NCBI GenBank assembly: GCA_031403995.1
Contig: JANNGS010000057.1
Location: 12,173 to 76,172, forward strand
DNA from: Thermoanaerobaculia bacterium
GTDB lineage: Bacteria; Acidobacteriota; Thermoanaerobaculia; Multivoradales; JAGPDF01
Direction of reading: 5' to 3'
DNA: 64,000 bases
The position numbers were made by a program, and so were the translations under genes. A model generated the notes under the pieces. The model ran no database searches. It saw nothing but the letters and a program-made list of their open reading frames with translations, and was not told where the DNA came from. This document shows, one piece after another, positions 5,986 through 52,984 of the stretch; the first letter of the stretch is position 1, and each line of letters opens with the position of its first letter.

Positions 5986-6008
5986 CCCGACAATAGGCGC
6001 GGCGGCAG

Positions 6009-9000
6009 TCAGCCCAGGCGCTCGAGCTCGGCGGCGAGGACGTCGACGTGTGGTGGCTCGAGCATTGAGAGATGGTCGCCCGGCACCGGCACAATCGCGA
6101 GCTCGCAGCCGGTTCGCCGCATGAACTCCGCATAGAGTCCGCCGGAACGCACGGTGGCGGCTAGAAAGGTCACCCTGCCGTCCCAGGCGCCGGGAAGGTA
6201 GCGCGCCAAGGCGGCTTCGTTGGCTCGCAAGACGCGGGTGAAGTGGCGGTATTCGTTCGCCTTGATCACCTCGTCGCGGCCATCCTTGAAGCGGCGAAGG
6301 CGGCGCCGCAGGCGCCCCAGGAGATCGCCCGCGGAGCGCCGCAGCCGGTCGTGAATCCACGCCCTTGCGGAGAGGGGCTCAGGGCGAACCCCGGGCAGGA
6401 CCTCGGCCAGCTCGGTGTCGAACATAGCGATCCAGGAGATTTCGTTGGGCCTCGCGAGGCGCGCCATCTCGTAGGCCACGACGCCTCCGAACGACATGCC
6501 GGCGATGCGGTAGGGCGGCGGGATCGGATGCGCCCGAACCTCCGCCAGAAGAATCTCCGCGAGCTCCTCGATCGTCTGCGGGATCGGTCGGTGGTCGTCG
6601 AGGCCCGGACTCTGAAGGCCGATGAGGAGGCGCCCGGGTGCAAGGATTCGCGCCAACGCGACCAGGCGGAGCAAGTGCCCACCGAGCCCGTGAACGCAGA
6701 AGATAACCGACGCCGCCCGCGCCGCCGGCGACGTCGGCGGGACGATCGTCACCAGGTTCGAGGCTTCTCCGAGACCAGACTCCGGCGCCATCTTGGAGCG
6801 CAATTCGGCCACGAGACCCGCGAGCGTCGGCGAGCGCAGGAGCTCGGCCACGCGGAGTGGAGCTCCGAACGCGGCTTCGATCCCGACGAGCAGCGAGACC
6901 GCGGCGAGAGAATCGCCGCCCGAAGCGAAGAAATCGGCGTCGCGAGAGATCGGCGTCACGTCGCCACGGCCGAGGGCGAGCTGCCAGATCTTCGCCAGCC
7001 GCTGTTCCAGAGGATCGCCGACCGACCCGAGCGCTTTCTCCCCGCACGCAGCCTCCGGCTTCGCGGGCGGAGGCGACGAGCTCTCACCCACCAGGCGATC
7101 GAAGTCGACCTTGCCGGCGAGGGTGAGTGGCAGGAAGGCGACGGCGAGGAGCGGGCTTGGGCGCAAGTACGCGGGCAGCCGCCGTTCGCACTCGCCCGCG
7201 ACCGCGGCGAGGTCTGCCCCGGTCGCGAGCACGACCCATCCGCTCAGGCGGAAGCCGCCCGCGGCCAGCGGTGCTGGCGCGACTGCGGCTGCGGAGACGC
7301 CGGCAATCGCGCGCAGCGTCGCCTCGACCTCTCCCGGCTCGACCCGTCGTCCAGCGATCTTGACTTGCCGATCGAGCCGGCCGAGAAACTCCAGCTCGCC
7401 GTCGCCGCGCCGGCGCACCCGGTCGCCGGTGGCATAGAAGCGATCAGAGCCACGACCTTGCTCGTCGCCGCCATCGCCGTCGGCGTTGCCGGAGGGGTCG
7501 AAGCGGGCGAATCGCGCCGCGGTCAGGTCGGGCCGCAGGTGATAGCCCCGCGCCAAGCCGCGGCCGCCGAGCCAGAGCTCCCCGGACTCGCCGGCAGCGA
7601 CTTGCCGGCGTTCGGTATCGAGGACGACGGCCCGCACTCCCTCGACCGGGTGCCCGATCGGCAGGCCGTTTCTCTCTGTGAGGTCGGAGGCGCGACGCGG
7701 CGCGTTCCACCATGTCGCCACGATCGTCGTTTCGGTCGGACCGTAGGTGTTGATGAGGCGCTTGCCGGCGGTGGCCTCGAGCCAGACGCGCGCGGCGCGC
7801 CCGCTCGCCAGCTCGCCGCCGAGAACCAGCAGGCGCAGGCTCGGCGGGAGCTCGAGGCCGTGAGCATCGACTTCCGTCGCGGCCTGCTCCCAGACCGCGG
7901 TCGGCAGGTCGAGGATGGTGACATCGAGCTCGCCGCAGCGCGCCAGGAGCTCGCGTGGCGCCGGCAGTGCAGGCTCGTCGAAGGCTACCAGCGTGGCGCC
8001 GTGGCAGAGCGCTCCGAAGATCTGTTCGAGGGCGAGATCGAACGCCGGCGAGGCAAGCTGAAGAATCCGGTCGCTGGGGGAAATCTCGAACTCGCGGCCC
8101 GCGGCTGCGATGTAGTGGGCGAACGCATGGTGCTCGACCGCGACTCCCTTGGGCGCGCCGGTCGAGCCCGAGGTCGCGGCGACGTAGGCGAGATCCCAAG
8201 GTTGCGCCGCCTGCCGCGGTTCGGCGCCGCTGCTCAAGGGCGAGTGCTCGCAGCCGTCCGCGAGACCGACCGGATGCATCGGAAGGTGCTGCAGAAGCGG
8301 CAGTAATGCAGCGGGGCGGTGCGGTGCGGATTCTCCGACTGCCAGCAGCGGGCGGTTCTCGGCGAGGATCCGAGCCACGCGATCCGGCGAGTCGAGGGCA
8401 TCGAGGACGAGAAAAGCGCCGCCGGCCTCGTGCACGGCGAGCATGGCCGTGACCAGATCGGGAAGGCGCCGGAGGCGCAGCGCCACTAGTCTCCCAGGCC
8501 CGACGCCGCGCCGCGCGAGGGCCGCAGCGAGGCGGCTCGCCCGCTCATTCAATTGCCGATAGCTCCAGCGCTCGTCACCCCACTCGACGGCGAGCGCGTC
8601 CGGCCTCCTTTCGGCGTGGGCCCGAAAGCGCTCGCCCACCGTGGGGATGCGTTCCGCAGGGAGGAGCGTCCCTGGCGTCGGACGACCGGCGACGTGCCTG
8701 CGGAGCCGGCGAGCGAAGCGGTGTGCAAAGTCTGTGAGGGAATCGCTCTCCGGAGGCAAGCGGGTGCGCAACGTCACCTTGCGGAGTCCGGGATCGACGG
8801 CGATCGTGAGGCGTATCGCACCTTCGGCAGGGAGGCCCGGGGGCGTCTCTCCGACGGTCAGCAGGTCGAGTGCCACGGCTGGACCGCATGGAAGACCGGA
8901 TCCGGTGGCGGCCGCCGTCAGCCGACGGCTGCGCAGGGGGAGATCCGTCGGGAACGTGCCGCGTGTCCGCAGGCGCGTGCGCTGTTCAGTCAAGTCGCGC

Positions 9001-10307
9001 GCCACCTCATCGAGCTCGATGCTCTCCCGAAAGGGTACGTGAATCGGCAGGCGCGCCACGAGAAAGCCCTGCCAGCCGTGCGCGGCGATCTCGGCGCGCA
9101 GCTCGGGTTCGCCGAAAGCGACGTCGAACGGTTGGCCGATCTCACCGCCCACCGCGAGGAGTATGGCGGCGACCAGGGTCTCGGTCTCGACTGGAGTATT
9201 CGGCGGCAGATCGAGCTCGATGCTGGCATCGGTAGTCGCCGAGCCGTGGCAAACGGTTTCGAACTCGGGCGGCAGGAGCGGTGCAAGCTCGACGAGCCTG
9301 CTGATCCACTCTGCCTCGTGGCGTTGGCACTCCCGTTCCCGGGCGACGAGGGGCTCGGGGTCGGGAGCGGTCGCGGCGAGGCGTTCGCCGATGGCCGCTC
9401 CGAGGCGGTCGAGGGCTGCCTGCGGAGCGATCGCGACGCCGTCGAGCGCCGTGAGCTGGGCGATGCGCAAGTCCGAGGTAGCTGTCGCGATCTCGAGGCC
9501 ATGGGCTCCGGCGCGCAGGATCGTGCCGGGCGGGGCTCCGCTGCGCGTGCCGAGGATCGTGACCTGCGGCGCCAGGAAGACTCCGCCAGGGACGACGAGC
9601 TTCGGGATGCCCATCGGGTTGTCGGCCGCGCCGAAGTCGAGCCCGCGCACGAAGGCCGATATGCGCTCCGCGGATTCGTTCCACGGCACGACGCAGCCGG
9701 GCGACGGGCGGCGCCAGCCCGGGAAGTAGGTGCGCGCGGCGCGCGTCTGCGGGCGAGAACTGAGCGTGCCGCTCGCCAGCCCGGCGAGGAGCTCTCCGAA
9801 GCTCTCGATCGCTGCCTCGGTGCAGCGCAGGTTGAGCGTCCAGGCGGTCTCGTCGGGAGCGAGCGCGAGTGCGCGTTCGACGAGGAGCTCGCCCATGTCG
9901 AGCTCTGGTGTCATGCGGTGCCAGACGATGCCGTGCCGATGCTCTCCCTGGTCGATCGCCCACGAGGTGGCGTGGAGCCCGGCGTACCGCGGCAGCGGCG
10001 CATCGTGGTAGTTGATCGCCATCCAGCGCGCCAAAGCGAGGAGCGCCGGCGGCAGAAGGCGCAGGTTGTGAACGGAGAGCAGGAGATCGAAGGGCGCGCC
10101 AGCAATTAGGGCTTCGACGTCGCCGTGGGTGAGGGGCGCCTGCGCTGACAGGAAGCAGCAGGCAATCCGGTTCTCGGCTGCCCAGCTGGCGACCCGGCCG
10201 TCACCCGTGACGACTCCGAGCACGGAATGACCGCCTTCGAGGAGCATCTGCCCACAGCGCACCGTCACTGCAGCGTCGCCTACGAGGACAGAAGAGAGGC
10301 GGCGCAT
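6009..10307 (-). CDS. Single-module NRPS-like megasynthase. The domain order is N-terminal methionyl-tRNA-formyltransferase-like domain, a vestigial linker with no HHxxxDG, an adenylation domain, a peptidyl carrier protein, and a thioesterase (F-A-T-TE).
   Basis: The formyltransferase-like N-terminus (HNLRLLPP...NYHDAPLPRYAG...SWAIDQGEHRHGIVWH) is followed by A-domain cores LAYVAATSGSTGAPKGV, NTYGPTET, YATGD and KIAGRRVEPGEVE. The carrier motif is FFASGGDSLAAV. The thioesterase has VHGLGG and the GMSFGG nucleophile elbow. The track ORF runs to 10403, but the Fmt-like domain begins at the Met at 10307. Confidence 0.85.
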   Translation of the reverse strand: MRRLSSVLVGDAAVTVRCGQMLLEGGHSVLGVVTGDGRVASWAAENRIACCFLSAQAPLTHGDVEALIAGAPFDLLLSVHNLRLLPPALLALARWMAINYHDAPLPRYAGLHATSWAIDQGEHRHGIVWHRMTPELDMGELLVERALALAPDETAWTLNLRCTEAAIESFGELLAGLASGTLSSRPQTRAARTYFPGWRRPSPGCVVPWNESAERISAFVRGLDFGAADNPMGIPKLVVPGGVFLAPQVTILGTRSGAPPGTILRAGAHGLEIATATSDLRIAQLTALDGVAIAPQAALDRLGAAIGERLAATAPDPEPLVARERECQRHEAEWISRLVELAPLLPPEFETVCHGSATTDASIELDLPPNTPVETETLVAAILLAVGGEIGQPFDVAFGEPELRAEIAAHGWQGFLVARLPIHVPFRESIELDEVARDLTEQRTRLRTRGTFPTDLPLRSRRLTAAATGSGLPCGPAVALDLLTVGETPPGLPAEGAIRLTIAVDPGLRKVTLRTRLPPESDSLTDFAHRFARRLRRHVAGRPTPGTLLPAERIPTVGERFRAHAERRPDALAVEWGDERWSYRQLNERASRLAAALARRGVGPGRLVALRLRRLPDLVTAMLAVHEAGGAFLVLDALDSPDRVARILAENRPLLAVGESAPHRPAALLPLLQHLPMHPVGLADGCEHSPLSSGAEPRQAAQPWDLAYVAATSGSTGAPKGVAVEHHAFAHYIAAAGREFEISPSDRILQLASPAFDLALEQIFGALCHGATLVAFDEPALPAPRELLARCGELDVTILDLPTAVWEQAATEVDAHGLELPPSLRLLVLGGELASGRAARVWLEATAGKRLINTYGPTETTIVATWWNAPRRASDLTERNGLPIGHPVEGVRAVVLDTERRQVAAGESGELWLGGRGLARGYHLRPDLTAARFARFDPSGNADGDGGDEQGRGSDRFYATGDRVRRRGDGELEFLGRLDRQVKIAGRRVEPGEVEATLRAIAGVSAAAVAPAPLAAGGFRLSGWVVLATGADLAAVAGECERRLPAYLRPSPLLAVAFLPLTLAGKVDFDRLVGESSSPPPAKPEAACGEKALGSVGDPLEQRLAKIWQLALGRGDVTPISRDADFFASGGDSLAAVSLLVGIEAAFGAPLRVAELLRSPTLAGLVAELRSKMAPESGLGEASNLVTIVPPTSPAARAASVIFCVHGLGGHLLRLVALARILAPGRLLIGLQSPGLDDHRPIPQTIEELAEILLAEVRAHPIPPPYRIAGMSFGGVVAYEMARLARPNEISWIAMFDTELAEVLPGVRPEPLSARAWIHDRLRRSAGDLLGRLRRRLRRFKDGRDEVIKANEYRHFTRVLRANEAALARYLPGAWDGRVTFLAATVRSGGLYAEFMRRTGCELAIVPVPGDHLSMLEPPHVDVLAAELERLG

Positions 10308-10401
10308 GGACAGGCCAAGCGTATAGCGAGAGGAGTCGTTGAAACCCCATCGACGGGAGCTGGCTTCGCGCCGGCACGCGAGGGAGTAGACTCCCCGCCG
10401 C

Positions 10402-11070
10402 ATGGGCGGCCGACACCTGTTTCCGCGCTTGCGCTGGTTGGGGCTCGCCTGGCTGGTGGTCTACCTGCCGTCGTATGCGATCGCCTACGGTTTCACCAAC
10501 TTCCTCTTTCTCTGCAACCTCGGCGTGATGCTCACCGCGGCGGCGCTGCTGGGCGAGAGCCGCCTGGTGCTCTCGAGCCAGGCGGTGGCGGCGCCGGTGA
10601 TCGGCCTCGCCTGGGCAACCGATGCCGGCTGGCGGGTGGTGACCGGGGCGCACCTGTTCGGCGGCACCGAGTACATGTGGGATCCGCAGTACCCGCTGTT
10701 CACCCGGCTGCTCTCGCTCTACCACCTCGCCTGGCCGGTGATCGTCGTCGTGCTCGTGCGGCGGGTCGGTTACGACCGTCGCGGCTGGGCGCTCCAGGCC
10801 ACCATCGCCGCCGCCGCGCTGGTCGTCTGCCGCCTGTTCACGGCGCCGGCGGAGAACATCAACTTCGCCTTCGTCGATCCGGTCTTCGGCCGGGCGTTCA
10901 CGCCGCCGGCGCTGCACCTCGCGATCGTCTTCGTCGCCCTCGCGGGCGTCGCCTACGGCGCGACCCACCTCGCGCTGCTGCGGTTCGCGGCGCGCCGGAG
11001 CGACGGCGGAACCGCAACGGCTCCGGACGCCGCCAGCGACGCCCTCCTCGACCGGGCTACCGCAGGCTGA
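10402..11070 (+). CDS. Hypothetical polytopic membrane protein, divergent from the NRPS-like gene.
   Basis: It has at least five hydrophobic helices and protein-like composition. The opposite-strand ORF 10201..10968 is Arg/Asp-rich junk. Confidence 0.55.
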   Translation: MGGRHLFPRLRWLGLAWLVVYLPSYAIAYGFTNFLFLCNLGVMLTAAALLGESRLVLSSQAVAAPVIGLAWATDAGWRVVTGAHLFGGTEYMWDPQYPLFTRLLSLYHLAWPVIVVVLVRRVGYDRRGWALQATIAAAALVVCRLFTAPAENINFAFVDPVFGRAFTPPALHLAIVFVALAGVAYGATHLALLRFAARRSDGGTATAPDAASDALLDRATAG

Positions 11071-18142: not shown

Positions 18143-18276
18143 TCGAAGCGGCGACGGATTCCGGCCACCCCCCCCGATCGGGTGATGGCAGAGAAACCCG
18201 GACAGGATGAGTTTTAAACTTTTCAGGTCCGCGGCCTTTTTGCGGAGGGTGGACGTCGCAAGTGGAGGAGTGTGCA

Positions 18277-19292
18277 ATGAGAGTCTGTGTCTTGGATTCG
18301 ATCGGTTTGCTCGCCGGAGTCGTTCCGCTGTCGGCGCAGTTCCTGCCCTGTGCGGCGGATACCCACCTCACCCGCAAGGGGGACTATCTCAACGGCACGA
18401 CCGCAGTCGTCGACAGCGGGGTCTGGGAGTGGGAGATCGGCTCCGGCGACACCTACACCAGCATCCAGGGCATTTCTGCCGTCGGCATGTTCTATGCCAC
18501 CGTGCCGACCTCGATCCCGGCGCCTACGGTCTCGCCGCCGGTGCTGCGCTGCAACCGGAAAATTCCGCCTACTGCACCCTTGGCACCCAGTTCTATGCAC
18601 GGTGGATGGCGCAGTTCCCGGATCCACACGACCTCGTCGACTACTACGTAACGAATCGCCTGTCCCTCTCTGGATGGGATATTTCGGCCCACATCCGCGC
18701 CGCGCGGCTGGCCGGATTCGACGTCTATTCGGTCGGGATCGCCGAGCGGATTCTCGCGCGCCGCCCCGACTGGGAGCATGTCCTCTACGGTGGCTGGGAC
18801 TACACCGAGTTGTCCTGGGGCGCGCTGCTGCGGGCGATGCTCGAGCTCGAGGCGGCGGGTGACCTGCCGCCGGCAATGTATACCGAGGTGCTCGTGATCG
18901 CCGACCTGTTGATCGCCGCCCAAGCCGTGGACGGATCCTGGGGCGGGGGCGACTTCCAGGCCACCGCCTACGCCCTGCTCGGACTGCGCGCCGATCCGTG
19001 GAACTTCACCCTGCCGTGGCAGCAGGCGATCATTGAAGGGGTCGACTTCCTGCACGCCACGGTGAGTGCCGAACCGACCTGCGGCTGGAGCTATCCGCCC
19101 GAATACGGTGAGATGAACAGCGAGATCCTCGCCGCGCTGGCGGTCGTGCAGTCGCTGCCGTTCGTGGACGGTTTCGAGACCGCGGATACTTCGGCCTGGA
19201 GCTCCGAGGTTCCGACAGCGCTCGCGGCCCGGGGCAGCCAGGTCGTCGTGCAAGCCCCGGCGCCTCGACCCGCGGCGCAGCCCTTCGACTGA
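18277..19292 (+). pseudogene. Secreted protein interrupted by a frameshift near 18505-18530. It carries a signal peptide, then an alpha/alpha-toroid-like region with a DGSWGGG motif and a conserved C-terminal DGFETADTSAWSSEVP motif. This is either a genuine pseudogene or a sequencing indel.
   Basis: GGAGGAG lies 8 nt upstream of the ATG at 18277. The signal peptide MRVCVLDSIGLLAGVVPLSAQ is read in frame +1 of the track (ORF 18262..18651). The body continues only in the frame of ORF 18207..19292, and no single frame spans both parts. Confidence 0.5.
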
Positions 19293-19977: not shown

Positions 19978-20073
19978 TTGATTCTAAGGCCTTTGATGAG
20001 CGCCGTGCAACATCGGATTGGAGCCCTCTGAAACGCCCGGCTCGGGCAGGGCGTGCTAGTGTCCAACCCCGTC

Positions 20074-22023
20074 ATGTCCAAACCCGAGTCGACGACGGGA
20101 GTCGACCTCAACCCCACCTCCCACGCTCCGATCATCCGCTCGAAGAAGGATCTGGCGCGCCTCAGCCTTGGTGCGCTGGGGGTCGTGTATGGCGACATCG
20201 GCACCTCGCCGCTCTACGCGATCAAGGAGTGCTTCGCACTGCCCCACGGTGTCGCGATCAACCTCGGCAACGTCCTCGGCATCCTCTCGCTCGTCTTCTG
20301 GGCGCTGACGCTCATCGTGGTCGTCAAGTACATCGGCTACGTGATGCGCGCCGACAACCACGGTGACGGCGGCATCCTCGCTCTCCTTGCGTTGGTCACC
20401 GAGCAGCGCAGCCACCCAAAGCGCGGCGAGTCCGGCCACCGGCGATGGATCACGCTCGTTGCGCTGGCGCTCTTTGGCGCGGCGCTGCTGTGGGCCGACG
20501 GGATGATCACGCCGGTCATCTCCGTCCTCGGCGCGCTCGAGGGGCTCGACGTCGCGACGCCGTTCTTCCGCCCGTGGATCGTGCCCATCGCCTTGGGGAT
20601 CCTCGTCGCCCTCTTTCTCGTGCAGCGACGGGGAACCGCCGGTATCGGCGCCGTTTTCGGCCCGCTCATGCTCGTCTGGTTCGCGTCGATCGCCGCTCTG
20701 GGAATCCCGGCGATCGTGCGTCATCCGGAGGTGCTGGCGGCGGTCAATCCGATGCACGCCTTTCACTTCTTCCGCGCCAACGGGTTGCACGGCTTCCTGA
20801 TTCTCGGCGCGGTCGTTCTCTGCGTCACCGGCAGCGAGGCTCTGTACGCCGATATGGGGCATTTCGGACGCCGCCCGATCCGCGTCGCCTGGTTCTGGCT
20901 GGTCTTCCCGGCGCTGCTCGCGAACTACTTCGGACAGGGAGCGCTGCTGCTCGCCCGCGGACAGGAGGTGGTCGCGAATCCGTTCTACGGCCTCGCGCCG
21001 GACTGGTTCCTCTATCCGCTGGTGGCGATCGCCACCGCGGCCGCGGTGATCGCCTCGCAGGCCCTCATCTCCGGCGCTTTCTCCCTCGCCCAGCAGGCCA
21101 TCCAGCTGGGCTTCTCGCCCCGCATGACGATCGTCCACACTTCGGGAGAGGCCAGCGGCCAGATCTACGTTCCGGAAGTGAATACGATCCTCATGGTCTC
21201 CTGCGTCGCCCTGACCCTGATGTTCCAGAAGTCCGGCAACCTGGCGGCGGCCTACGGCATCGCGGTGATGGGGACGATGGTGATCACCACGATCCTGCTC
21301 TTCTCCGTCGAGCTCCGGATATGGAAGTGGCCGCTCTGGCAGGCGCTCGCGCTGAGCGCGGCCTTCATGGTCATCGACATCCCTTTCCTCGCCGCCAACG
21401 TGGTCAAGATCGTGAGCGGCGGCTGGGTGCCGCTCGCCGTCGCCCTTGCGATCTATGTCCTGATGACGACCTGGAAGCGCGGCCGCCGAGCCGTCCGCAA
21501 GACCCTCGAGGCCGGCAGCTTGCCGATCGATCTCTTCCTCGCCGGGCTCTCGACCTACGAGCCCTTCAGGGTGAAAGGTACGGCGGTGTTCATGACATCG
21601 TCTATGAACGTCACGCCGCCCATCCTGCTGCACCATTTCAAGCACAACAAGGTGCTGCACGAGAAGGTCATCCTGTTCACCATCGTGACCGAGGGCATTC
21701 CGGAGGTCCCGAAACGGGACCGCATCGGGATGCGCGAGCTCGACCACGGGTTCGCCGAGGTCATAGCGCACTATGGCTTCATGCAGACCCCGAACGTGCC
21801 GCTGGCGTTGCGCCGGGCAGCGGAACTGGGTCTCCAGTTCGATGCCAATTCGGTGAGCTACTTCCTCGGCCGCGAGACGATTCTCACGACCGGCAAGTCG
21901 GCCATGGCCGGCTGGCGCAAGAGCCTGTTCGTCTACCTCGCCCGCAACGCGCGGCCCGCCAACGCCTTCTTCCGCATTCCCCCGAATCGCGTCATCGAGC
22001 TCGGCGCCCAGGTCGAGATCTAG
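20074..22023 (+). CDS. kup: KUP/HAK/KT potassium uptake transporter.
   Basis: The KUP signature GALGVVYGDIGTSPLYA is present, with 12 TM segments and the conserved C-terminal cytosolic domain. Confidence 0.9.
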   Translation: MSKPESTTGVDLNPTSHAPIIRSKKDLARLSLGALGVVYGDIGTSPLYAIKECFALPHGVAINLGNVLGILSLVFWALTLIVVVKYIGYVMRADNHGDGGILALLALVTEQRSHPKRGESGHRRWITLVALALFGAALLWADGMITPVISVLGALEGLDVATPFFRPWIVPIALGILVALFLVQRRGTAGIGAVFGPLMLVWFASIAALGIPAIVRHPEVLAAVNPMHAFHFFRANGLHGFLILGAVVLCVTGSEALYADMGHFGRRPIRVAWFWLVFPALLANYFGQGALLLARGQEVVANPFYGLAPDWFLYPLVAIATAAAVIASQALISGAFSLAQQAIQLGFSPRMTIVHTSGEASGQIYVPEVNTILMVSCVALTLMFQKSGNLAAAYGIAVMGTMVITTILLFSVELRIWKWPLWQALALSAAFMVIDIPFLAANVVKIVSGGWVPLAVALAIYVLMTTWKRGRRAVRKTLEAGSLPIDLFLAGLSTYEPFRVKGTAVFMTSSMNVTPPILLHHFKHNKVLHEKVILFTIVTEGIPEVPKRDRIGMRELDHGFAEVIAHYGFMQTPNVPLALRRAAELGLQFDANSVSYFLGRETILTTGKSAMAGWRKSLFVYLARNARPANAFFRIPPNRVIELGAQVEI

Positions 22024-22125
22024 TCGGCGCGCGATTTGTTGCGCGGCAAGTCACTGATTCTGCTGCAGTTGCCTGCCTGAACCCGGGCGGTGGCCGGGGC
22101 TCGCGTGCTACGCTCCCCACCCGCC

Positions 22126-24075
22126 ATGGCCAAGACAGACTCGTCGACCGGCGTCGACGTCCATCTGACCTCCCACGCACCGATCATCCGCTCGCCGAAG
22201 GACCTGGCGCGGTTGGGGTTGGGTGCATTGGGAGTGGTCTACGGCGACATCGGAACCTCGCCGCTCTATGCCATGAAGGAGTGCTTCAACTCCGCGCACG
22301 GTGTCGCGCCGCTGCTCGGCAATGTGCTGGGGGTCCTCTCGCTGGTCTTCTGGGCGCTCACGCTGATCATCTCCGTCAAGTACATCTCTTTCGTGCTGCG
22401 GGCCGACAACCATGGCGACGGCGGCATCCTCGCGCTCCTCGCTCTGGTTACCGAACAGCGCAGTCACCCCGGCAAAGGCGAGACGGGCAGGAAGCGCTGG
22501 ACAGTCCTGGTCAGTCTCGCTCTGGTCGGCACGTCGCTGCTCCTCGCCGAGGGCATGATCACCCCGGCCATCTCCGTCCTCTCCGCGCTCGAAGGGCTCG
22601 ACATGGCGACCCCGATCTTCCGCCCCTTTATCTTGCCGCTGGCGGTCGGAATTCTCCTCGCCCTGTTTCTCGTCCAGCGCAAGGGCACGGCCGGGATCGG
22701 TGCGGTCTTCGGCAAGGTGATGCTCGTCTGGTTCGCGGCGATCGCGGCCCTGGGACTCCCGGCCATCCTCCGCCATCCGGAGGTGCTGGGAGCGATCAAC
22801 CCGGCGCACGCCGTGCGCTTCTTCGCCGAGAACGGGCTGCACGGATTCCTCATCCTGGGGTCGGTCGTTCTCTGCGTCACGGGAGGAGAGGCGCTCTACG
22901 CGGACATGGGACATTTCGGGCGCGGCCCGATCCGCATCTCCTGGTTCTCGCTCGTCTTCCCGGCCCTTCTGATCAACTACTTCGGCCAGGGGAGCCTGCT
23001 GCTCGAGCGCGGCACGAGTGCGGTGGCGAATCCGTTCTTCGGTCTCGCACCCTCGATACTCCTCTATCCGCTGGTGATCCTGGCGACCGCCGCGGCGGTG
23101 ATCGCTTCCCAGGCGATGATCTCGGGCGCCTTCTCGCTCGCCCAGCAGGCGGTGCAACTGGGCTATCTTCCACGGCTCTCGATCATCCACACCTCGGGCG
23201 AGGCGAGCGGCCAGATCTACGTGCCGGAGATTAACCGGCTCCTGATGGTCGCCTGCATCGCGCTCACGCTCGGTTTCCGCGACTCCTCCAAGCTCGCCGG
23301 CGCCTATGGCATCTCGGTCATGGGCGCGATGATCTGCACCTCCGTCCTGCTCTCCGCGGTCGCCATCCGGCGCTGGAAGTGGTCCCCCGCGCTGGCCTTC
23401 GGGCTCGTGGCCCTATTCCTCGCGGTGGAAGTTCCGCTCCTCCTCGCCAACATCCCGAAGATCGTCCATGGCGGGTGGTTTCCACTCCTGGTGGGGTCGG
23501 TCTTCTTCTTCGCCATGACCACCTGGAACATCGGCCGGCGCGCAGTGCGGAGCTTTCTCGAGCTCGGAAGCCTGCCGATCGACCCCTTTCTGGCCCGTCT
23601 CGAGTCGTACAACGCGCACCGGGTGAAAGGAACGGCGGTTTTCATGACCTCGGCGATGGGGGTGACGCCGCCGATCCTGCTGCACCACTTCAAGCACAAC
23701 AAGGTGCTGCACGAGAAGGTCATCCTGTTCACGATCGTGACCGAGGGTATCCCGGAGGTCCCGAAGCGGGACCGGATCCAGATGCGCGAGCTGGCACATG
23801 GCTTCAGCGAGGTCATCGCGCACTACGGTTTCATGCAGACGCCGAACGTGCCGCTCGCCCTGCGCCGCGCGGCGGAGCAGGGGCTCGAGTTCGACCCCGG
23901 GACGGTGAGCTACTTCCTCGGCCGCGAGACCATTCTCACCACCGGCAAGTCGCGGATGTCCGGCATGCGCAAGAGCCTGTTCGTCTACCTCGCCCGCAAC
24001 GCGCGGCCTGCCAACGCCTTCTTCCGCATTCCTCCGAACCGCGTCATCGAGCTCGGCGCGCAGGTCGAGCTTTAG
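22126..24075 (+). CDS. kup: Second KUP potassium transporter, a tandem paralogue of the preceding gene.
   Basis: It is about 80% identical at the protein level to the 20074..22023 product and carries the same GDIGTSPLYA signature. Confidence 0.9.
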   Translation: MAKTDSSTGVDVHLTSHAPIIRSPKDLARLGLGALGVVYGDIGTSPLYAMKECFNSAHGVAPLLGNVLGVLSLVFWALTLIISVKYISFVLRADNHGDGGILALLALVTEQRSHPGKGETGRKRWTVLVSLALVGTSLLLAEGMITPAISVLSALEGLDMATPIFRPFILPLAVGILLALFLVQRKGTAGIGAVFGKVMLVWFAAIAALGLPAILRHPEVLGAINPAHAVRFFAENGLHGFLILGSVVLCVTGGEALYADMGHFGRGPIRISWFSLVFPALLINYFGQGSLLLERGTSAVANPFFGLAPSILLYPLVILATAAAVIASQAMISGAFSLAQQAVQLGYLPRLSIIHTSGEASGQIYVPEINRLLMVACIALTLGFRDSSKLAGAYGISVMGAMICTSVLLSAVAIRRWKWSPALAFGLVALFLAVEVPLLLANIPKIVHGGWFPLLVGSVFFFAMTTWNIGRRAVRSFLELGSLPIDPFLARLESYNAHRVKGTAVFMTSAMGVTPPILLHHFKHNKVLHEKVILFTIVTEGIPEVPKRDRIQMRELAHGFSEVIAHYGFMQTPNVPLALRRAAEQGLEFDPGTVSYFLGRETILTTGKSRMSGMRKSLFVYLARNARPANAFFRIPPNRVIELGAQVEL

Positions 24076-29296: not shown

Positions 29297-31480
29297 CTAG
29301 TGAATGTAGCCGAGCGCGCGGAGCTTCTGGCGCTCTTCGTCCTCTTCGAGCTGGCTGCGTGCGGCGCGCATGGCGTGGTTGCGCCAGACGAAGAGAGAGG
29401 CGCAGTTCGGATCGAGCGCGAAGCGCGGCACGCCTTCCACAATCCGTTCGATGTCGCGGCTCTCACCGGAAGGGATCGGTGCTCCGTTCCACCGTGCACA
29501 GCCGCCGGTCACGGTGATCCGCGCGCGGGCCGCCTTCGACTCCGGGAAGAAGACGCCGTCGACGTCGCCGGGCGGCAGTTCGAGGTCGAGCTCGACGGCG
29601 CCCGCCTCTCCCCGCAGCATGTCCTCGGGCTCGAGGGCGAACCGTTCGGCCCGGGGCTCGCCGGCCGCGAACGTGAGCCGCAATCGCCCTGCCGTGGCGC
29701 CGCCGAGAACCCGCACTTCGAGACCGCGGCGAGTGTGCGCCAGCGACGTCTCGATGGCGCGCCAATCGGCGCCCATGTCGTGCGCCGGCGCTGCGAGCAA
29801 CGCGCGCTCGAGCGGATCGGTAGCGAGGTCGAACCAGCCGAGCGCCGGCAGGAAGGACCGCAGGTGCAGCGCGACGCGGTTTCCCTTCGGGTCCGCCTGC
29901 GGGTCGGGGAGGCCGCGCGTGCCGAAGCGGTCGAAGAAGTGGAGCTTGGTGCTCTTGCGGACGACGACCGCGCGGGCGCTCCCTCCGGTCAGCATGTGAA
30001 TCGGCGGCAAGACCTCTCTCGTCCAGTTCTTCGGCTCGAGGAGATCGACCCCGTCGACCTTGCGACGCCGCGGTATCTCGAGCTGGTGCTCGATCGTCGG
30101 CAGGAAGTCGGCGAGGGAGAGGAGCGTGTCGGGCGGCACCGGAGGAAAGCGTCGCGCGTTGCCGGGACGGAGGAGGAAAGGCACCCGCAAGACCTCGTCA
30201 TAGAGCGACGGGCCGTGTTTCCAACCCCCATGCTCGAGGAACTCCTCGCCGTGGTCGGACAGGAAGACGAGGGTGGCGCGGTCGCGCAGCGCGGCGTCGA
30301 GGCCGTCCCAGAACTGCCCGATGAGGAGGTCGCCGTAGCGGACGTCGTCGTCGTACAGCGCGCGGAGGTGCTCGACATCGCGGGGCTGGAGCGTCGCGTC
30401 GAAGCTGAGGTCGAAGTGACTCTCGTCGCCGCGATAGCTGCCGGTGTATTCCGGGTCGAACGGAGTCACCCCCTTCGGCTGGTCCGGTCTCCCGTAGGGC
30501 TCGTGCGGCTCGATGAGCTGGAGGTAGAGCAGGAAGCGCTCCCCTTCATGGGCGCGGATCCACCCGGGAAGGCGCGCCAGCATGTCGCTCCCCGGCAGCG
30601 CCATCGAGGCCATCTCGTAGGGAGGCGTATAGAAAGTCGTGAATCCGCGGTGAAAACCGTTGTCGACGTTGAGCGCCGGGTTGGCGTTGAAATGGGCGGT
30701 CGACCAGCCGGCGAAGGCGAAGTCGTGCCCCAGCGTCGGAACGCCGGGGGCGACACCGACCGACGCTCCGGAATCGTCTTCCTGCCCCGCTGGCAGCATC
30801 CCGGTCAGCAGGGCGGCGACGGATGGGGTGGTCCAGGAGGCGAGCGCCCAGGCGCGCTCGGCCTTCCACGCGCCGGCAAAGATGCGATCGAGATGGGGAG
30901 TCGTCGGCCGCCGGCTGCCGTAGAGCCCGACCGCGTCGCGGCGCGTGGTGTCGAGGAGGAGGATGATCAGGGCGTCGTTTCGCGGGCTGGGCTGGACGAT
31001 CCGCAGATCCGAGATCACGATGCCGGCGGGGGAGTCGGAGCGGAAGCTCAGGACGGAGGGCGCGTCGGTGTCGATCTCCAGGTCCTCGTAGAAGAGCCCG
31101 GCTGCGGCGTCGAACGTCCGCTGCAGGGGGGGAAAGAGCGGCCGGCCGGGAGTTGGCGCCGGTGCCGCCGTCGCCACTGTCAGGGTGGCTGTCCCGGGCA
31201 CTTGCGCGGCCCACGCGAAACGCAAACGTCCTGTGGCCGCCCGCCCGAGCGGCCAGGTGAGCGACTCTCCGGCCGGAATCAGGACCCCTTCGTGGCGCAC
31301 CCGCGACGGCTCGATGACGGTGGCGGAGGCGGCGGTCGAGAGGTCGGGACGGAGCGCCGCCGCCTGTCGGCGTTCGCCGCAGGCGGTCAGGGCGAGCGAC
31401 GCCACAAGGCCGACGACCGCCCAGGCCGCGCGCGGCGGCAGGCGAACCGGCAGGCGGCGACCGGGCTCAGCCGCGGACAC
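29297..31480 (-). CDS. Sulfatase-fold (alkaline-phosphatase superfamily) lipoprotein with a long C-terminal extension. The formylglycine Cys is replaced by Thr, and the conserved Arg of the C-x-P-x-R motif by Val.
   Basis: The GTG start at 31480 gives the lipoprotein signal ...AAWAVVGLVASLALTAC. The metal-binding LLDTTRRD motif is followed by SWTTPSVAALLTGMLP in place of CTPSRAALLTG. The upstream 260 aa of track ORF 29297..32155 overlap fur and are low-complexity. Confidence 0.75.
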   Translation of the reverse strand: MSAAEPGRRLPVRLPPRAAWAVVGLVASLALTACGERRQAAALRPDLSTAASATVIEPSRVRHEGVLIPAGESLTWPLGRAATGRLRFAWAAQVPGTATLTVATAAPAPTPGRPLFPPLQRTFDAAAGLFYEDLEIDTDAPSVLSFRSDSPAGIVISDLRIVQPSPRNDALIILLLDTTRRDAVGLYGSRRPTTPHLDRIFAGAWKAERAWALASWTTPSVAALLTGMLPAGQEDDSGASVGVAPGVPTLGHDFAFAGWSTAHFNANPALNVDNGFHRGFTTFYTPPYEMASMALPGSDMLARLPGWIRAHEGERFLLYLQLIEPHEPYGRPDQPKGVTPFDPEYTGSYRGDESHFDLSFDATLQPRDVEHLRALYDDDVRYGDLLIGQFWDGLDAALRDRATLVFLSDHGEEFLEHGGWKHGPSLYDEVLRVPFLLRPGNARRFPPVPPDTLLSLADFLPTIEHQLEIPRRRKVDGVDLLEPKNWTREVLPPIHMLTGGSARAVVVRKSTKLHFFDRFGTRGLPDPQADPKGNRVALHLRSFLPALGWFDLATDPLERALLAAPAHDMGADWRAIETSLAHTRRGLEVRVLGGATAGRLRLTFAAGEPRAERFALEPEDMLRGEAGAVELDLELPPGDVDGVFFPESKAARARITVTGGCARWNGAPIPSGESRDIERIVEGVPRFALDPNCASLFVWRNHAMRAARSQLEEDEERQKLRALGYIH

Positions 31481-31841: not shown

Positions 31842-31869
31842 AAGCTGATTCTAGCCGCGCGGCGGCGCG

Positions 31870-31895: not shown

Positions 31896-31916
31896 GCCTC
31901 AAACGGGAGAGAGAAC

Positions 31917-48277: not shown

Positions 48278-51200
48278 TTGGGGGAAGCCATTTTGACAGG
48301 TTCTGCCTGCCTCAAACAATGCTCTCTATGGTTGGGCCGGGTGGCGCTTTTCCTGTTGGCTGTAGCGGCAGGGGCAGATCAGCTCTGGTTGGTGTCGCGG
48401 GGCCTGCCCAGCGACACGCCGGCGGGATGGTCGCAGCCGCACACGATGACTCCGGACGGACGCTACGTCCTCATGAGCTCGGCGGCCACGGGTTGGGTGA
48501 GCGGCATCGTGGACTCGAACGGCGGCCCGGACGTCTACCTGTGGGACCGGGATACGGGCGAGCACACCCTCGTCTCGCACACCGTCGGGGATCCGGCGAC
48601 GGCGGCGAACGACGAGTCGTTTCCCGGTTCGATCAGCGACGACGGCCGATTCGTGACCTTCAGCTCCTACGGTTCGGACCTGGTCGACGGCGCAACCGAC
48701 ATCAACTTCGTCGCCGACGTCTTTCTCTGGGACGGCGCCACCGGCTCGATCCAGCTCGTCTCGCACATGGGGGTCGCCGTAGCGATGACCGCGAACGAGC
48801 GCTCGACGCCGAACGCCATGAGCGCCGACGGCCGCTACGTCGTCTTCCAGTCCGTGGCCGACGATCTCGTCGCTGGCGGAGTCGACGACAACCAGACCTG
48901 GGACGTTTTCGTCTGGGACCGCGACACCTCCGAGGTGGTCCTGGTCTCGCACGATGCGGTCGATCCGGCGAGCGCGGCAGATGGACTGTCCGAGCCTGCC
49001 GCGATGAGCACCGACGGGCGCTACATCGCCTTCACTTCGTCGGCGACCAATCTGGTCGCCGGGACCACCGATGCCAATGCCGTCGAGGACGCCTTCGTCT
49101 GGGATCGGGTCGCGGGCGCTTCGACCCTGGTCTCGCACGCGGCGCCCTCGGCGACGACGGCGGCGAACAACTTCTCCGTCGCCCGGGCCATCAGTGCCGA
49201 CGGCCGCTATGTCGCTTACGACTCCAACGCCACCAACCTGATCACCGGCTGGTCGGGCTCGGCCGCCAACGTCTTTCTCTGGGATCGCGACACCGGCGGA
49301 GCGACCCTGGTCTCCCATCGCGCGACCGGTCTCGCCGCGGGAGCCGGCGGCTCCGAGCTCGGCGCGCTCAGTCCGGACGGCCAGAGCGTCGCCTTCGTGT
49401 CGAAGGCGGAAACGCTCATCGCCGGCGGCAGCGACGCCAATGCGGAGGACGACACCTTTCACTGGCGGGCCGACAGCGGCGCGGTGGCGCTGGTTTCCCA
49501 CACGGCTTCGTCGACGACCACGGCGGGAGATCGCGCGGCGCTGCCGGTGGCGATCAGCGCCGACGGTCAGTTCGTGCTCTATCGCTCGGCGTCGAGCGAT
49601 CACATCGCCGGGGGGAGCGACGCGAACGGCGTCGAAGACGCCTTTTTCTGGGACCGCGACAGCGGCGCGATCGAGCTCGTCTCGCGAACTCCTGCCAGCG
49701 CGACGACTCCGGGCGGCGCGGCTTCGACGCCGCGCGCGATGAGCGCCGACGGGCTGTGGGTCGCCCTCGCCTCCAAAGCCAGCGACCTGCTCTCGGGAGG
49801 CGTGGACGGCAACGGTGCCCAGGACGCCTTTCTCTGGGACCGCACGAGCGGCGCCCACAGTTTGATCTCAAGCGCCACTGTGGCGGAGGTAACCGGCGCG
49901 AACGGCCTGGTCAGCCCGCTGGCGCTGAGCTCCGATGGGCGGTTCGTCCTGTTCAGCTCGGAGGCGACCAATCTGCTGGCCGGTGGGACCGCAACCAGCG
50001 ACCTCTGGGACCTTCTGCAGTGGGATCGCACGACCGAAGCCTTGACCCTGGTCGCCCACGTCGCCGGCGAGCGGCCGACCGCGACGAACGAGGCCGGCAG
50101 CATGAGCTCCGACGGCCGCTACGTGGCGTTCTACTCCTTCGCCGCCGACCTGATCGCCGGCGGCAGCGATGCCAACGGCGAGGCCGACGCTTTTCTCTGG
50201 GATCAGACGAGCGGGCTGCGGATCCTCATTTCCGGCGCAGCCGGTTCGGGCACGGTGGCGGCGAACGGGCGCTCGATCCCGGCGGCGATGAGCCTGGACG
50301 GCCGCTACGTGACGTTCTGGTCGCTCTCCACCGACCTCGACGCGGGCCTAACCGACCTCAACGATGCCAGGGACGTCTTCCAATGGGATCGTGACACCGG
50401 CGTCGTGACCCTGATCTCGCACGTCGGCGGACAACCGCAGGTCGCGGCGGACTCCGAATCCGTTCCTACGGCGACGAGCGCCGACGGCCGTTACGTCGCT
50501 TTCTACTCGCAGGCGATGAGCCTGGTCGACGTCGCCAACGATCTCAACGGCACCGTCGAGGACGCCTTCCTTTGGGACCGCATCACCGGTGCGGTCACCC
50601 TCGTCTCGCACATTCCCGGGGCCCCGACGACCACCGGAAACGGCAAGTCGATACCTCTCGGGGTGAGCGCCGACGGCGAGTTCGTCGCCTTTGCCTCCAA
50701 ATCGAGCGACCTGATCGTCGGCAACGACGACGGGAACGGGCAGTTCGACCTTTTCCTCTGGGCGCGATCGAGCGGCGCGGTGACCCTCATCTCGCACTCC
50801 ACCATCGCGTCGACGAGCACCGGCGACGAGTTCAGTGCCTTCAAGGCGCTTTCCGCCGACGGCAATTTCGTCGCCTTCGTGTCGGCGGCGACCGACCTGA
50901 TCGTCGGGGGCATCGACTCCAACGGGCCGGGCGCCGACGCTTATCTGTGGAGTCGCCTGACTGGGGAGGTGCAACTGATCGCGCACGCCCCTGGCGATCC
51001 GGCGGCGACGGCGAACGGTGCCTCCGAGCCCGTGTCGTTGAGCGCCGATGGCCGCTATGTCGTGTTCTCGTCTTCCGCTTCCGACCTGGTCGCGGGTGCG
51101 CTCGACACCAACGAGCTCGCCGACGTCTACCTCTGGGATCGGTTGAGCGACAGCTCGATCCTGGCGTCGCACACGCTGGATGACGCGACCGTTTCGGCGT

Positions 51201-52984
51201 TCGGTCCCTCGACGGCGCGGGCGATGAGCGCGAACGGGAGCTACGTCCTGTTCTCTTCCGCCGCCCGGGACCTCGCGCCGGCAAACACCTCTGCGATCCA
51301 GGTCTACCTCTGGTCGGCCAACACCCTGGACGCGACTCCTCCGCTCAATCCGGCGATTGACTCGACGCTGCCACCGGTGTCGATCTGGTCGAACAGCCCT
51401 TGGGTCGAGATCAGCTGGTCGGGGGCGAGCGACGAGCTCGGCGGCTCGGGGATGCACGGCTATTCGACGCTCTGGGACACCTCAGCGGACACGGTTCCGG
51501 ACGCGGTCGTCGATGAACCGCACGCCACGGACCCCAATTCGGTGACCAGCCCGCCGCTCACCGACGGCGACTCGCACTACTTCCATCTCTCGACTTGCGA
51601 CTCGGCCGGCAACTGCGCTGCGACCGTGCATGCCGGACCGTTCTGGGTGGACACCACGCCGCCCGCTGCAGCCACCGCGCTGGCGAGCTCCAGTCATGCG
51701 GTGGGCGTGCCGTCGAACGACCCGACCGTCGACGTCCAATGGCAGGCGGCGCTCGACCAGGCCGGACTCTCCGGCATCGACGGTTACGCGGTGGAGTTCG
51801 AGGCGAACAGCGGCTGGACCTGTGACGAGGTGCTGGACCTCGAGGAGGGCACACTCTCGACGACGAGCCCGGTGCTCGCCGACGGCGAGTGGTACTTCCA
51901 CCTCTGCGCGCGCGACAACGCCGGCAACTGGGGGCCGGTGGCGTCGCTCGGGCCGTTCGTGATCGAGACCCTGCCGCCGGGCGCGGCCTCCGGGCTCGCG
52001 AGCTCGAGTCACGCGGTGGGCGTGCTGTCGAACGACCCGACCGTCGACGTCTCCTGGCAGGCGGCTCCCGACCTCGAGGTTCCCTCCGGCATCGATGGCT
52101 ACGCGATCCAGTTCGATGGGAACAGCAGTTGGACCTGCGATGAGGTCAAGGACGTCGAGGAGGACACGCTCGCGGCGACGAGCCCGGCGCTCGCCGACGG
52201 CGACAGGTACTTCCACCTCTGCGCGCGCGACAACGCCGGCAACTGGGGGCCGGTGGCGTCGCTCGGGCCGTTCGTGATCGACGCCTCACCGCCGGGCGCG
52301 GCCTCCGCACTCGCGAGCTCGAGTCACTCAGTGGGCGTGCCGTCGAACGACCCGACGGTCGACGTCTCCTGGCAGGCGGCTCCCGACCAGGCGGGTCCCT
52401 CCGGCATCGACGGCTACGCGCTTCAGTTCGATGCGAACAGCAGCTGGACCTGTGACGAGGTGCTGGACGTCGAGGAGGGCACACTCGCAACGACGAGCCC
52501 GGTGCTCGCCGACGGCGACGGGTACTTCCACCTCTGCGCGCGCGACAACGCCGGCAACTGGGGGCCGGTGGCGTCGCTCGGCCCGTTCTTGATCGACGCC
52601 TCCCCGCCGGGCGCGGCCTCCGGGCTCGCGAGCTCGAGCCACGTGGTGGGCGTGCCGTCGAACGACCCGACGGTCGACGTTCAATGGCAGGCGGCTCCCG
52701 ACCAGGCGGAGTCCTCCGGCATCGACGGCTACGCGCTGCAGTTCGATGCGAACAGCGGCTGGGCCTGCGACGAAGTGCAGGACGTCGAGGAGGTCACGCT
52801 CGCGGCGACGAGCCCGGCGCTCGCCGACGGCGACTGGTATTTCCACCTCTGCGCGCGCGACAACGCCGGCAACTGGGGACCGGTAGCGTCGATCGGGCCG
52901 TTCGTGATCGAAATCTCCGCGACCGTTTTCATCGACGGGTTCGAGCTCGGCGATATGTCGCGATGGTCCAGCAATGTGCCTTGA
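48278..52984 (+). CDS. Giant secreted protein (about 1570 aa). It has a signal peptide, about 19 tandem PD40/TolB-like beta-propeller repeats (...SxDGRYVaF.S.A.dLvaG.tD.N...DVFLWDR.TG...LVSH), one diverged and four near-identical roughly 105-aa Fn3/Ig-like modules, and a terminal DGFELGDMSRWSSNVP motif.
   Basis: The repeat architecture was read directly from the translation. The start is approximate; TTG at 48278 or 48293 gives ...CLKQCSLWLGRVALFLLAVAAGADQ. Confidence 0.8.
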   Translation: MGEAILTGSACLKQCSLWLGRVALFLLAVAAGADQLWLVSRGLPSDTPAGWSQPHTMTPDGRYVLMSSAATGWVSGIVDSNGGPDVYLWDRDTGEHTLVSHTVGDPATAANDESFPGSISDDGRFVTFSSYGSDLVDGATDINFVADVFLWDGATGSIQLVSHMGVAVAMTANERSTPNAMSADGRYVVFQSVADDLVAGGVDDNQTWDVFVWDRDTSEVVLVSHDAVDPASAADGLSEPAAMSTDGRYIAFTSSATNLVAGTTDANAVEDAFVWDRVAGASTLVSHAAPSATTAANNFSVARAISADGRYVAYDSNATNLITGWSGSAANVFLWDRDTGGATLVSHRATGLAAGAGGSELGALSPDGQSVAFVSKAETLIAGGSDANAEDDTFHWRADSGAVALVSHTASSTTTAGDRAALPVAISADGQFVLYRSASSDHIAGGSDANGVEDAFFWDRDSGAIELVSRTPASATTPGGAASTPRAMSADGLWVALASKASDLLSGGVDGNGAQDAFLWDRTSGAHSLISSATVAEVTGANGLVSPLALSSDGRFVLFSSEATNLLAGGTATSDLWDLLQWDRTTEALTLVAHVAGERPTATNEAGSMSSDGRYVAFYSFAADLIAGGSDANGEADAFLWDQTSGLRILISGAAGSGTVAANGRSIPAAMSLDGRYVTFWSLSTDLDAGLTDLNDARDVFQWDRDTGVVTLISHVGGQPQVAADSESVPTATSADGRYVAFYSQAMSLVDVANDLNGTVEDAFLWDRITGAVTLVSHIPGAPTTTGNGKSIPLGVSADGEFVAFASKSSDLIVGNDDGNGQFDLFLWARSSGAVTLISHSTIASTSTGDEFSAFKALSADGNFVAFVSAATDLIVGGIDSNGPGADAYLWSRLTGEVQLIAHAPGDPAATANGASEPVSLSADGRYVVFSSSASDLVAGALDTNELADVYLWDRLSDSSILASHTLDDATVSAFGPSTARAMSANGSYVLFSSAARDLAPANTSAIQVYLWSANTLDATPPLNPAIDSTLPPVSIWSNSPWVEISWSGASDELGGSGMHGYSTLWDTSADTVPDAVVDEPHATDPNSVTSPPLTDGDSHYFHLSTCDSAGNCAATVHAGPFWVDTTPPAAATALASSSHAVGVPSNDPTVDVQWQAALDQAGLSGIDGYAVEFEANSGWTCDEVLDLEEGTLSTTSPVLADGEWYFHLCARDNAGNWGPVASLGPFVIETLPPGAASGLASSSHAVGVLSNDPTVDVSWQAAPDLEVPSGIDGYAIQFDGNSSWTCDEVKDVEEDTLAATSPALADGDRYFHLCARDNAGNWGPVASLGPFVIDASPPGAASALASSSHSVGVPSNDPTVDVSWQAAPDQAGPSGIDGYALQFDANSSWTCDEVLDVEEGTLATTSPVLADGDGYFHLCARDNAGNWGPVASLGPFLIDASPPGAASGLASSSHVVGVPSNDPTVDVQWQAAPDQAESSGIDGYALQFDANSGWACDEVQDVEEVTLAATSPALADGDWYFHLCARDNAGNWGPVASIGPFVIEISATVFIDGFELGDMSRWSSNVP
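51653..52915 (+). repeat. Four tandem, nearly identical 315-bp DNA repeats (units starting near 51653, 51969, 52284 and 52593) that encode the Fn3/Ig-like modules, plus one older diverged copy near 51340-51652.
   Basis: Long identical strings recur every 315 bp, for example gacaacgccggcaactgggggccggtggcgtcgctcgggccgttcgtgatcga and tcgaacgacccgac.gtcgacgtc. They produce a stack of phantom overlapping ORFs in the track (51595..52490). Confidence 0.85.

Follow-up and report, generated by a model that had tools for sequence, protein, structure and literature searches.

A short C-terminal tag on exported proteins of Acidobacteriota, homologous to the first hairpin of a lectin-type jelly-roll domain

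Results

Two tagged genes in a Thermoanaerobaculia window

We analysed a stretch of 64,000 nucleotides from a Thermoanaerobaculia bacterium of the Acidobacteriota (GenBank assembly GCA_031403995.1, contig JANNGS010000057.1, positions 12,173 to 76,172 of the forward strand). This whole stretch, here called the window, has a G+C content of 69% and contains two genes, for otherwise unrelated and apparently secreted proteins, which share a short peptide at or near the C-terminus, referred to below as the tag. The initial annotation of this DNA had drawn attention to the shared peptide, and both copies were indeed found in the sequence (Table 1). They are identical at 12 of 18 residues, rather than at the 14 of 17 first given, and at 62% of nucleotides; in the flanks identity falls to 30-32%, the background level. 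A hidden Markov model (HMM) of the tag, built from other genomes and run against a six-frame translation of the window, scored copy 1 at 28.7 bits and copy 2 at 29.8 bits, and the next best match at 5.0 bits. On account of this gap the window holds exactly two copies, which are not chance matches. Both are diverged members of the widespread unit described below.

Only one of the two copies is strictly C-terminal, although both had been described as such. Copy 2 has the canonical position directly before its stop codon, while copy 1 lies 25 residues before the protein end and is followed by an extension which is neither hydrophobic nor furnished with a basic cluster; the interval 19220-19292, which had been assigned to the motif, spans only this extension and the stop codon. 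The frameshift postulated for carrier gene 1 was confirmed by inspection of the DNA, as a change of frame is needed to join the open reading frames (ORFs) 18262-18651 and 18207-19292, which lie in different frames. Because of this frame change and the run of residues past the usual stop after ..VP, carrier gene 1 may be decaying, and could be a pseudogene or the product of one or more assembly indels. Its protein had no Pfam or NCBIfam match. The protein of carrier gene 2 matched the Pfam families PD40, Big_13 and Big_3_4, with four immunoglobulin (Ig)-like repeats of ~105 aa at 51659-52981 ahead of the tag.

Table 1. Positions of the tag copies, their carrier genes and other features referred to in the text
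Sequence	Feature	Position	Strand	Remarks
Window	Tag copy 1	19161..19214	+	FVDGFETADTSAWSSEVP; from sequence and translation
Window	Extension after tag copy 1, with stop codon	19215..19292	+	TALAARGSQVVVQAPAPRPAAQPFD; 25 residues, atypical
Window	Carrier gene 1	18278..19292	+	Start ATG 18278; signal-peptide-like N-terminus MRVCVLDSIGLLAGVVPLSAQ; frame change near 18498-18510
Window	Tag copy 2	52928..52981	+	FIDGFELGDMSRWSSNVP; stop TGA 52982-52984
Window	Carrier gene 2	48278..52984	+	1568 aa; signal-peptide-like N-terminus; PD40 beta-propeller repeats, Ig-like repeats, tag
Window	Membrane protein, first paralogue	20053-22020	+	~660 aa
Window	Membrane protein, second paralogue	22090-24072	+	~660 aa
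Window	Nonribosomal peptide synthetase (NRPS)-like enzyme	6012-10403	-	1464 aa
Window	Sulfatase-domain protein	29300-32155	-	952 aa
L115	Tagged multihaem cytochrome	5381-6307	-	Holophagae genome
L121	zf-HC2 anti-sigma factor	7090-7896	+	Directly upstream of body gene
L139	zf-HC2 anti-sigma factor (L139/140)	712-1419	+	Directly upstream of body gene

The tag is a widespread C-terminal unit

A word-indexed protein search with padded versions of the window tags gave no matches; such a search needs shared 5-mers, for which the window copies are too diverged. A degenerate DNA pattern for DGFE-x-[AG]D-x-S-x-WS was therefore run against a single genome of each species and matched at least 120 loci. 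Nearly all came from metagenome-assembled genomes (MAGs) labelled Thermoanaerobaculia, Holophagae, 'Multivoradales' or Acidobacteriota, often with several loci in the same MAG, and up to seven terminal tags per MAG were seen among the matches listed. This distribution and the G+C content of the window would by themselves point to a probable source in Acidobacteriota of the Thermoanaerobaculia/Holophagae type. The widespread unit reads [LIV]-F-x-DGFESGDTSAWS-x-T-V-P-stop, with the logo [LIV]-F-x-D-G-F-E-S-G-D-T-S-A-W-S-x-T-V-P and the canonical form IFADGFESGDTSAWSATVP. Between WS and the stop codon there are precisely 4 residues in 58 of 93 in-frame instances, and at most 6 in 76 of the 93. 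Positions that had been left free by the search pattern were conserved as well (F at -2 in 54/58, S after E in 48, the final P in 49/58), and the tag thus carries a signature of at least three nearly invariant residues.

The same picture emerged from protein databases. A tag profile compared with 5.8 billion sequences retrieved database proteins at E-values down to 2e-11, and 106 of the best 120 had the same ending. When 1.84 billion cluster representatives were searched exhaustively with HMMER, 7,357 reached E<=0.001. Of the best single-copy matches, 41/50 had a terminal copy; in the genomes, about 80% of copies lay at the exact C-terminus. The possibility, allowed for in the initial annotation, that the motif was peculiar to the two window proteins is thus at odds with its recurrence in at least 120 loci and 7,357 protein clusters, whereas one part of its interpretation was upheld, in that a short conserved tag is shared by the C-termini of many unrelated proteins with signal peptides, with several tags per genome that are nearly always C-terminal. 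The impression that the motif resembled no known one was also correct, in that no Pfam or NCBIfam model covered the tag when the window proteins and 53 carriers were scanned. The searchable literature returned nothing relevant for the motif strings or for terms on Thermoanaerobaculia sorting and secretomes. The tag is an undescribed C-terminal unit, very common among the exported proteins of Acidobacteriota.

Conservation of the tag operates on the peptide. Across 94 tags synonymous codons vary freely and both serine codon families are used, and DNA identity is 0.65 inside the tag, as against background values of 0.35 upstream and 0.28 downstream. All three stop codons are used after tags, and the sequence that follows is unrelated. 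The background flanks and free synonymous codons ruled out a DNA repeat or miniature inverted-repeat transposable element (MITE). Read-through or frameshifting into a downstream domain was likewise ruled out, by the three stops, the unrelated downstream sequence, and the varying frames and separate signal peptides of the genes for the remainder of the domain (see below). In eight proteins (P0134, P0141, P0143, P0146, P0161, P0163, P0127 and P0147) two tags occur in tandem, 20-40 residues apart, and the ~20-residue unit thus duplicates on its own.

Tag carriers and their neighbouring genes

A signal-peptide-like N-terminus was detected in 59 of 71 complete carrier ORFs, using a home-made heuristic of hydrophobicity and charge, and in both window carriers. 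The 53 carriers scanned matched 51 Pfam families, none of which was common to more than 5, and which include subtilases, M28, papain-like and trypsin-like peptidases, FG-GAP, BNR, beta-helix and CarboxypepD_reg. Matches to NCBIfam comprised choice-of-anchor Q, J and B domains and homologues of the M36 peptidases that depend on myxosortase or rhombosortase. In other lineages the choice-of-anchor and M36 peptidase families bear a C-terminal sorting signal, and here the tag stands in place of those known signals.

The initial annotation had suggested looking for a dedicated protease or transpeptidase that co-occurs with the tag, and none was found beside the 120 tagged loci. Clustering of the neighbours at the 120 loci listed revealed no recurring protease, sortase-like, transpeptidase or secretion gene. 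The only recurring neighbours, at 14/120 loci, were pairs of an extracytoplasmic function (ECF)-type sigma factor (~200 aa) and a Ser/Thr kinase (~800-1240 aa), present at L016, L019, L028, L046, L047, L052, L054, L057, L064, L068, L090, L098, L102 and L105. Such pairs are numerous in Acidobacteriota, and those seen here, recognised by their sequence motifs, may simply be abundant in these genomes.

One tagged protein has a different ending. In the multihaem cytochrome of the Holophagae MAG at L115, the tag is succeeded by a hydrophobic helix and RLKER-stop. This is the layout of a classical sorting signal appended to the tag and the single exception to the helix-less form, and it gave no match to the NCBIfam CTERM models.

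The tag is the first hairpin of a jelly-roll domain

The highest-scoring cluster representatives contained two to six internal copies of the motif, and the spacing between copies peaked at 20 residues (terminal or tandem tags), at ~190-220 and at ~285-295. In the multi-copy proteins, which come from other lineages, the motif opens each repeat of a domain of ~205 aa with the outline IFADGFESGDLSAWSS..TDGGDLSVS...YRARFYFDPN...WQAASAPGANDG...DNDT...GTYYFDAFES...IGP. The motif of a Ktedonobacterales protein (L026) aligned to positions 3-48 of CBM_4_9, and the tag of P0138 to the first positions of NTTRR-F1. An AlphaFold model of P0138, which has two repeats, was obtained from a 17-row alignment with a mean predicted local distance difference test (pLDDT) score of 89.3, and in each domain of the model the motif forms strand 6-10, a loop and the short strand 22-24. 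The fold matched CBM22, the PL20 glucuronan lyase (TM 0.62), TtX122, the PL36 alginate lyase and lectin-like domains of botulinum toxin, and the domain is thus a concanavalin-A (ConA)-like jelly roll.

The pattern ..F-x-D/N-G-x-F-E-x-G-x-x-x-W.. is common to the tag and to the start of the CBM_4_9 or ConA-like domain. However, the complete sandwich of such domains comprises ~130-220 residues, whereas the window tags correspond to the first ~18 residues only. A class-A domain HMM matched positions 2-18 alone in the window, and the remainder of the domain is absent from both tagged genes. The window tag is thus an orphaned hairpin, a copy of the one that opens a lectin-type domain. Some Thermoanaerobaculia proteins (L089 and L030) keep the full domain at the C-terminus.

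The two ends of the jelly roll have something in common. The last strand of the domain in P0235-P0245 and P0138 (..YYFDAFESRR.TYIGP, ..FDEFESFRTLAP-stop) resembles the first hairpin (..IFADGFES..), so that the ends share a D-x-F-E-S motif.

Secreted bodies that lack the hairpin

A search of the loci with the domain HMM brought to light an unexpected gene at L067, in a Polyangiaceae MAG. It is located immediately downstream of the gene for a tagged cytochrome c and encodes a signal peptide joined to the domain from position ~25 onwards, without the hairpin. We term such a hairpin-less protein the body. A profile of domain bodies retrieved the family P0235-P0245 (201-226 aa), again made up of a signal peptide and domain positions ~25 to the end; the protein search, limited by its word index, found 12 proteins. 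When bodies were aligned with the full domain, the signal peptide occupied the exact position of the hairpin. The body genes each encode a signal peptide of their own, and their frame with respect to the gene upstream is not constant; they are therefore separate genes and not products of read-through.

A metagenome scan for bodies yielded 31 further loci, and a gene ending in the hairpin was present at 16 of ~25 distinct body loci. At 12 body loci the adjoining gene encodes a secreted protein of ~260 aa ending in ..NGGIDE..DC.D[VL][IL]FFDNFGTGDxxxWSxxxGS-stop. At L121 and L139/140 a zf-HC2 anti-sigma factor is encoded directly upstream of the body gene (Table 1), and its short periplasmic part consists almost wholly of one or two hairpin motifs (LLLDGFESGRFGIWS, TDGGFESGTLEGWS, LFMDGFESGKPDSW). 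At L127 and L133/134 a multi-pass membrane protein encoded beside the body gene ends in a hairpin, and the L127 contig holds a body gene and a canonical tag together. A loose pattern for a C-terminal hairpin was matched by 14 of 461 segments of at least 150 aa in the body loci, and all 14 belonged to the hairpin-gene families. Genes for an ECF sigma factor, an anti-sigma factor, a LiaF-like membrane protein, a sulfatase-family protein, glycosyltransferases and methyltransferases surround the body genes.

Other features of the window

Two adjacent paralogous membrane proteins with near-identical C-termini are encoded downstream of carrier gene 1 and, judged by eye from their sequences, look like potassium transporters of the Kup type. 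The NRPS-like enzyme listed in Table 1 has a single module with formyltransferase, AMP-binding, carrier-protein and thioesterase domains and is unrelated to the tag. The sulfatase-domain protein of the window ends in ..L[RK]ALGY[IVL]x-stop, an ending also found in the sulfatase-domain proteins that adjoin body-only genes at L121, L127, L133, L137, L141, L145, L146, L148, L152 and L154. It constitutes a second recurrent C-terminal motif.

Discussion

A split domain as a possible basis of the tag

Considered together, the homology of the tag to a domain start, the bodies that lack precisely this part, and the adjacency of body genes to genes ending in the hairpin find their simplest account in a split domain. 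We tentatively suggest, at somewhat short of an even chance, that the tag docks in trans onto the hairpin-less lectin body by strand complementation. The tag would be a self-contained beta-strand-plus-loop unit of ~20 residues, homologous to the N-terminal hairpin of the jelly roll, which became detached from its domain in genomes of the Thermoanaerobaculia type and spread to the C-termini of many proteins exported through Sec. After export, the hairpin would insert into a separately exported body and complete its beta-sheet, such that many enzymes and adhesins, conceivably the window proteins among them, could share one lectin-like partner. In view of its lectin fold and polysaccharide-related gene neighbourhood, this partner might tether the carriers to a polysaccharide of the cell surface or serve them as a shared adaptor. 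A docking partner, the body protein, is indicated by the evidence in preference to an enzyme that cleaves the tag.

A broader form of this proposal can be envisaged, in which dozens of exported proteins per genome are captured by a single body in an envelope tag-and-catcher arrangement, and the hairpins of the anti-sigma factors serve as decoys through which the ECF pair monitors occupancy of the body. We consider this less likely than not, and somewhat less probable than docking as such.

Several observations weigh against a split domain. No body gene was found in the 64-kb window, and none in 118 of the 120 listed loci that carry tags, so that a many-to-one link for ordinary tagged proteins would be drawn by analogy with the operon cases. 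Among the 12 body proteins found, only P0240 is labelled Thermoanaerobaculia, and seven body loci with usable flanks had no hairpin gene. The hairpins of the operons (FFDNFGTGD..W) differ from the canonical DGFESGDTSAWS..VP. In addition, the conserved terminal ..TVP of the tag has no counterpart in the intact domain, and a model of P0234 from a 12-row alignment reached a pLDDT of 57, with weak fold matches and with the hairpin unplaced, on which it is therefore uninformative.

Comparison with known sorting and docking systems

For small C-terminal sorting domains, Haft lists six attributes, namely a position at the C-terminus, several copies in each genome, a signature of at least three nearly invariant residues, a strongly hydrophobic transmembrane segment after it, a terminal cluster of basic residues and signal peptides on the carriers (bioRxiv 10.1101/2023.06.07.544157). 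In common with the signals of the LPXTG/sortase, PEP-CTERM/exosortase, GlyGly-CTERM/rhombosortase and MYXO-CTERM/myxosortase systems, the tag is short, C-terminal and present in multiple copies on unrelated signal-peptide carriers. It also occurs on the same kinds of carrier as these tripartite signals (choice-of-anchor domains and M36 proteases) and, as with exosortases, its candidate partner genes lie near polysaccharide-related genes. In contrast to them, however, the tag has neither a transmembrane helix nor an Arg/Lys cluster and ends in x-T-V-P; no intramembrane protease was found at tagged loci, and the candidate partner is a soluble beta-sandwich and not an enzyme. Membership of the PEP-CTERM type was thus rejected on the helix and the basic cluster.

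The C-terminal domain (CTD) of the type IX secretion system (T9SS) resembles the tag in being C-terminal beta-structure without a membrane helix on Sec-exported proteins. However, that CTD folds as an entire domain and has roughly 70-100 residues, whereas the tag has ~20 residues and cannot fold alone; moreover, no sorting-domain model was matched in the window proteins or among the top 25 families of the 53 carriers. Substrates of type I secretion have no Sec signal peptide, and a signal of this kind was set aside since most tag carriers have a Sec-type N-terminus.

The closest mechanistic parallels to a split domain are the donor-strand complementation of the chaperone-usher pathway and the engineered SpyTag/SpyCatcher pair, where a short peptide from another polypeptide completes a beta-sandwich, the same mechanism as that proposed for tag and body. 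In those systems, though, the folds are Ig-like or CnaB and the setting is polymeric or engineered, whereas tag and body would be ConA-like and many-to-one, with complementation as the suggested step. The cohesin-dockerin system of the cellulosome is similar in that many enzymes bear a small C-terminal module for a shared partner, as proposed for the tag. A dockerin is a calcium-binding module of ~60-70 residues built from duplicated helices, and no dockerin family was present among the Pfam matches of the 53 carriers, which excludes the tag from that family.

Alternative explanations

The tag could instead be a secretion or sorting signal read by an outer-membrane translocon, protease or transpeptidase that would export, cleave or anchor the carriers, with the jelly-roll homology reflecting merely its origin. 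This was essentially the proposal of the initial annotation, and part of it stands, as the tag is terminal, present in multiple copies and borne by signal-peptide proteins. It displays four of the six attributes of sorting domains (C-terminal location, several copies per genome, at least three invariant residues and signal peptides), its carriers include homologues of the choice-of-anchor Q, J and B and M36 proteins that bear such signals elsewhere, and at L115 a hydrophobic helix and RLKER come after it. Nevertheless, the canonical form has no transmembrane segment and no basic cluster and is far shorter than a T9SS CTD, the 120 tagged loci offered the sigma factor/kinase pairs and no recurring processing or secretion gene, and the helix-bearing ending at L115 matched no CTERM model of NCBIfam. 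We thus regard such a signal as unlikely on the whole, although it would be compatible with a split domain if the body protein were the receptor of the pathway.

A second alternative assigns the tag a mainly regulatory role in monitoring of the envelope, the body and an ECF sigma/anti-sigma pair sensing exposed tags. In E. coli, the C-termini of unassembled outer-membrane proteins activate sigma-E through DegS and RseA, which provides a precedent. The operons of body genes with an ECF sigma factor, a zf-HC2 anti-sigma factor and a LiaF-like membrane protein would fit such a role, as would the hairpin motifs that make up the periplasmic tails of the anti-sigma factors at L121 and L139/140 and the sigma factor/kinase pairs flanking tags at 14 of the 120 loci listed. 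However, a regulatory role leaves unexplained the strong conservation of 20 residues on dozens of unrelated enzymes; the adjacency of the sigma factor/kinase pairs may be due to chance, given their general abundance in Acidobacteriota; and neither tagged gene of the window adjoins a sigma or anti-sigma gene. We therefore think it improbable that the tag is mainly regulatory.

It might also be argued that the tags are vestiges, functionless leftovers of C-terminal carbohydrate-binding domains cut by stop codons, since the motif is homologous to the domain start and the Thermoanaerobaculia proteins L089 and L030 keep the full C-terminal domain. This is very hard to reconcile with an end point that lies 4 residues after WS in most copies over more than 50 protein families, with the conservation of residues free in the search pattern (F at -2 in 54/58 and the final P in 49/58), or with free variation at synonymous sites and the tandem duplication of the unit, and we give it little credence. 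Finally, a repeated DNA element or an assembly artefact overlapping the gene ends, for which nothing speaks beyond the recurrence itself, is close to inconceivable given the fall in identity from 0.65 in the tag to 0.35 upstream and 0.28 downstream, the use of both serine codon families and three stop codons, and the origin of the assemblies in many independent projects.

The initial annotation had further considered that the motif might belong to an internal domain of non-secreted proteins, and this was half correct: in other lineages the motif forms the initial hairpin of a ConA-like jelly roll, but this domain sits in exported proteins.

Implications for the Acidobacteriota

Thousands of predicted exported proteins of the Acidobacteriota end in the tag, among them proteases, glycoside-hydrolase-like proteins, adhesin-like repeat proteins and cytochromes, and, as neither Pfam nor NCBIfam has a model for it, it has been left unannotated on them. 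Such a model would flag a large and coherent part of the secretome of this abundant and mostly uncultured lineage of soils and sediments. If the split domain is true, it would represent a new mode of attachment to the envelope, non-covalent, many-to-one and based on a lectin fold, and would supply a natural peptide/protein pair for protein engineering. If, in addition, dozens of tagged proteins are captured by one body whose occupancy is monitored, both protein sorting or surface display and envelope signalling would rest on a new principle. Under the split-domain proposal, how these bacteria hold or route their extracellular enzymes becomes a testable matter of one peptide and one protein of ~200 residues.

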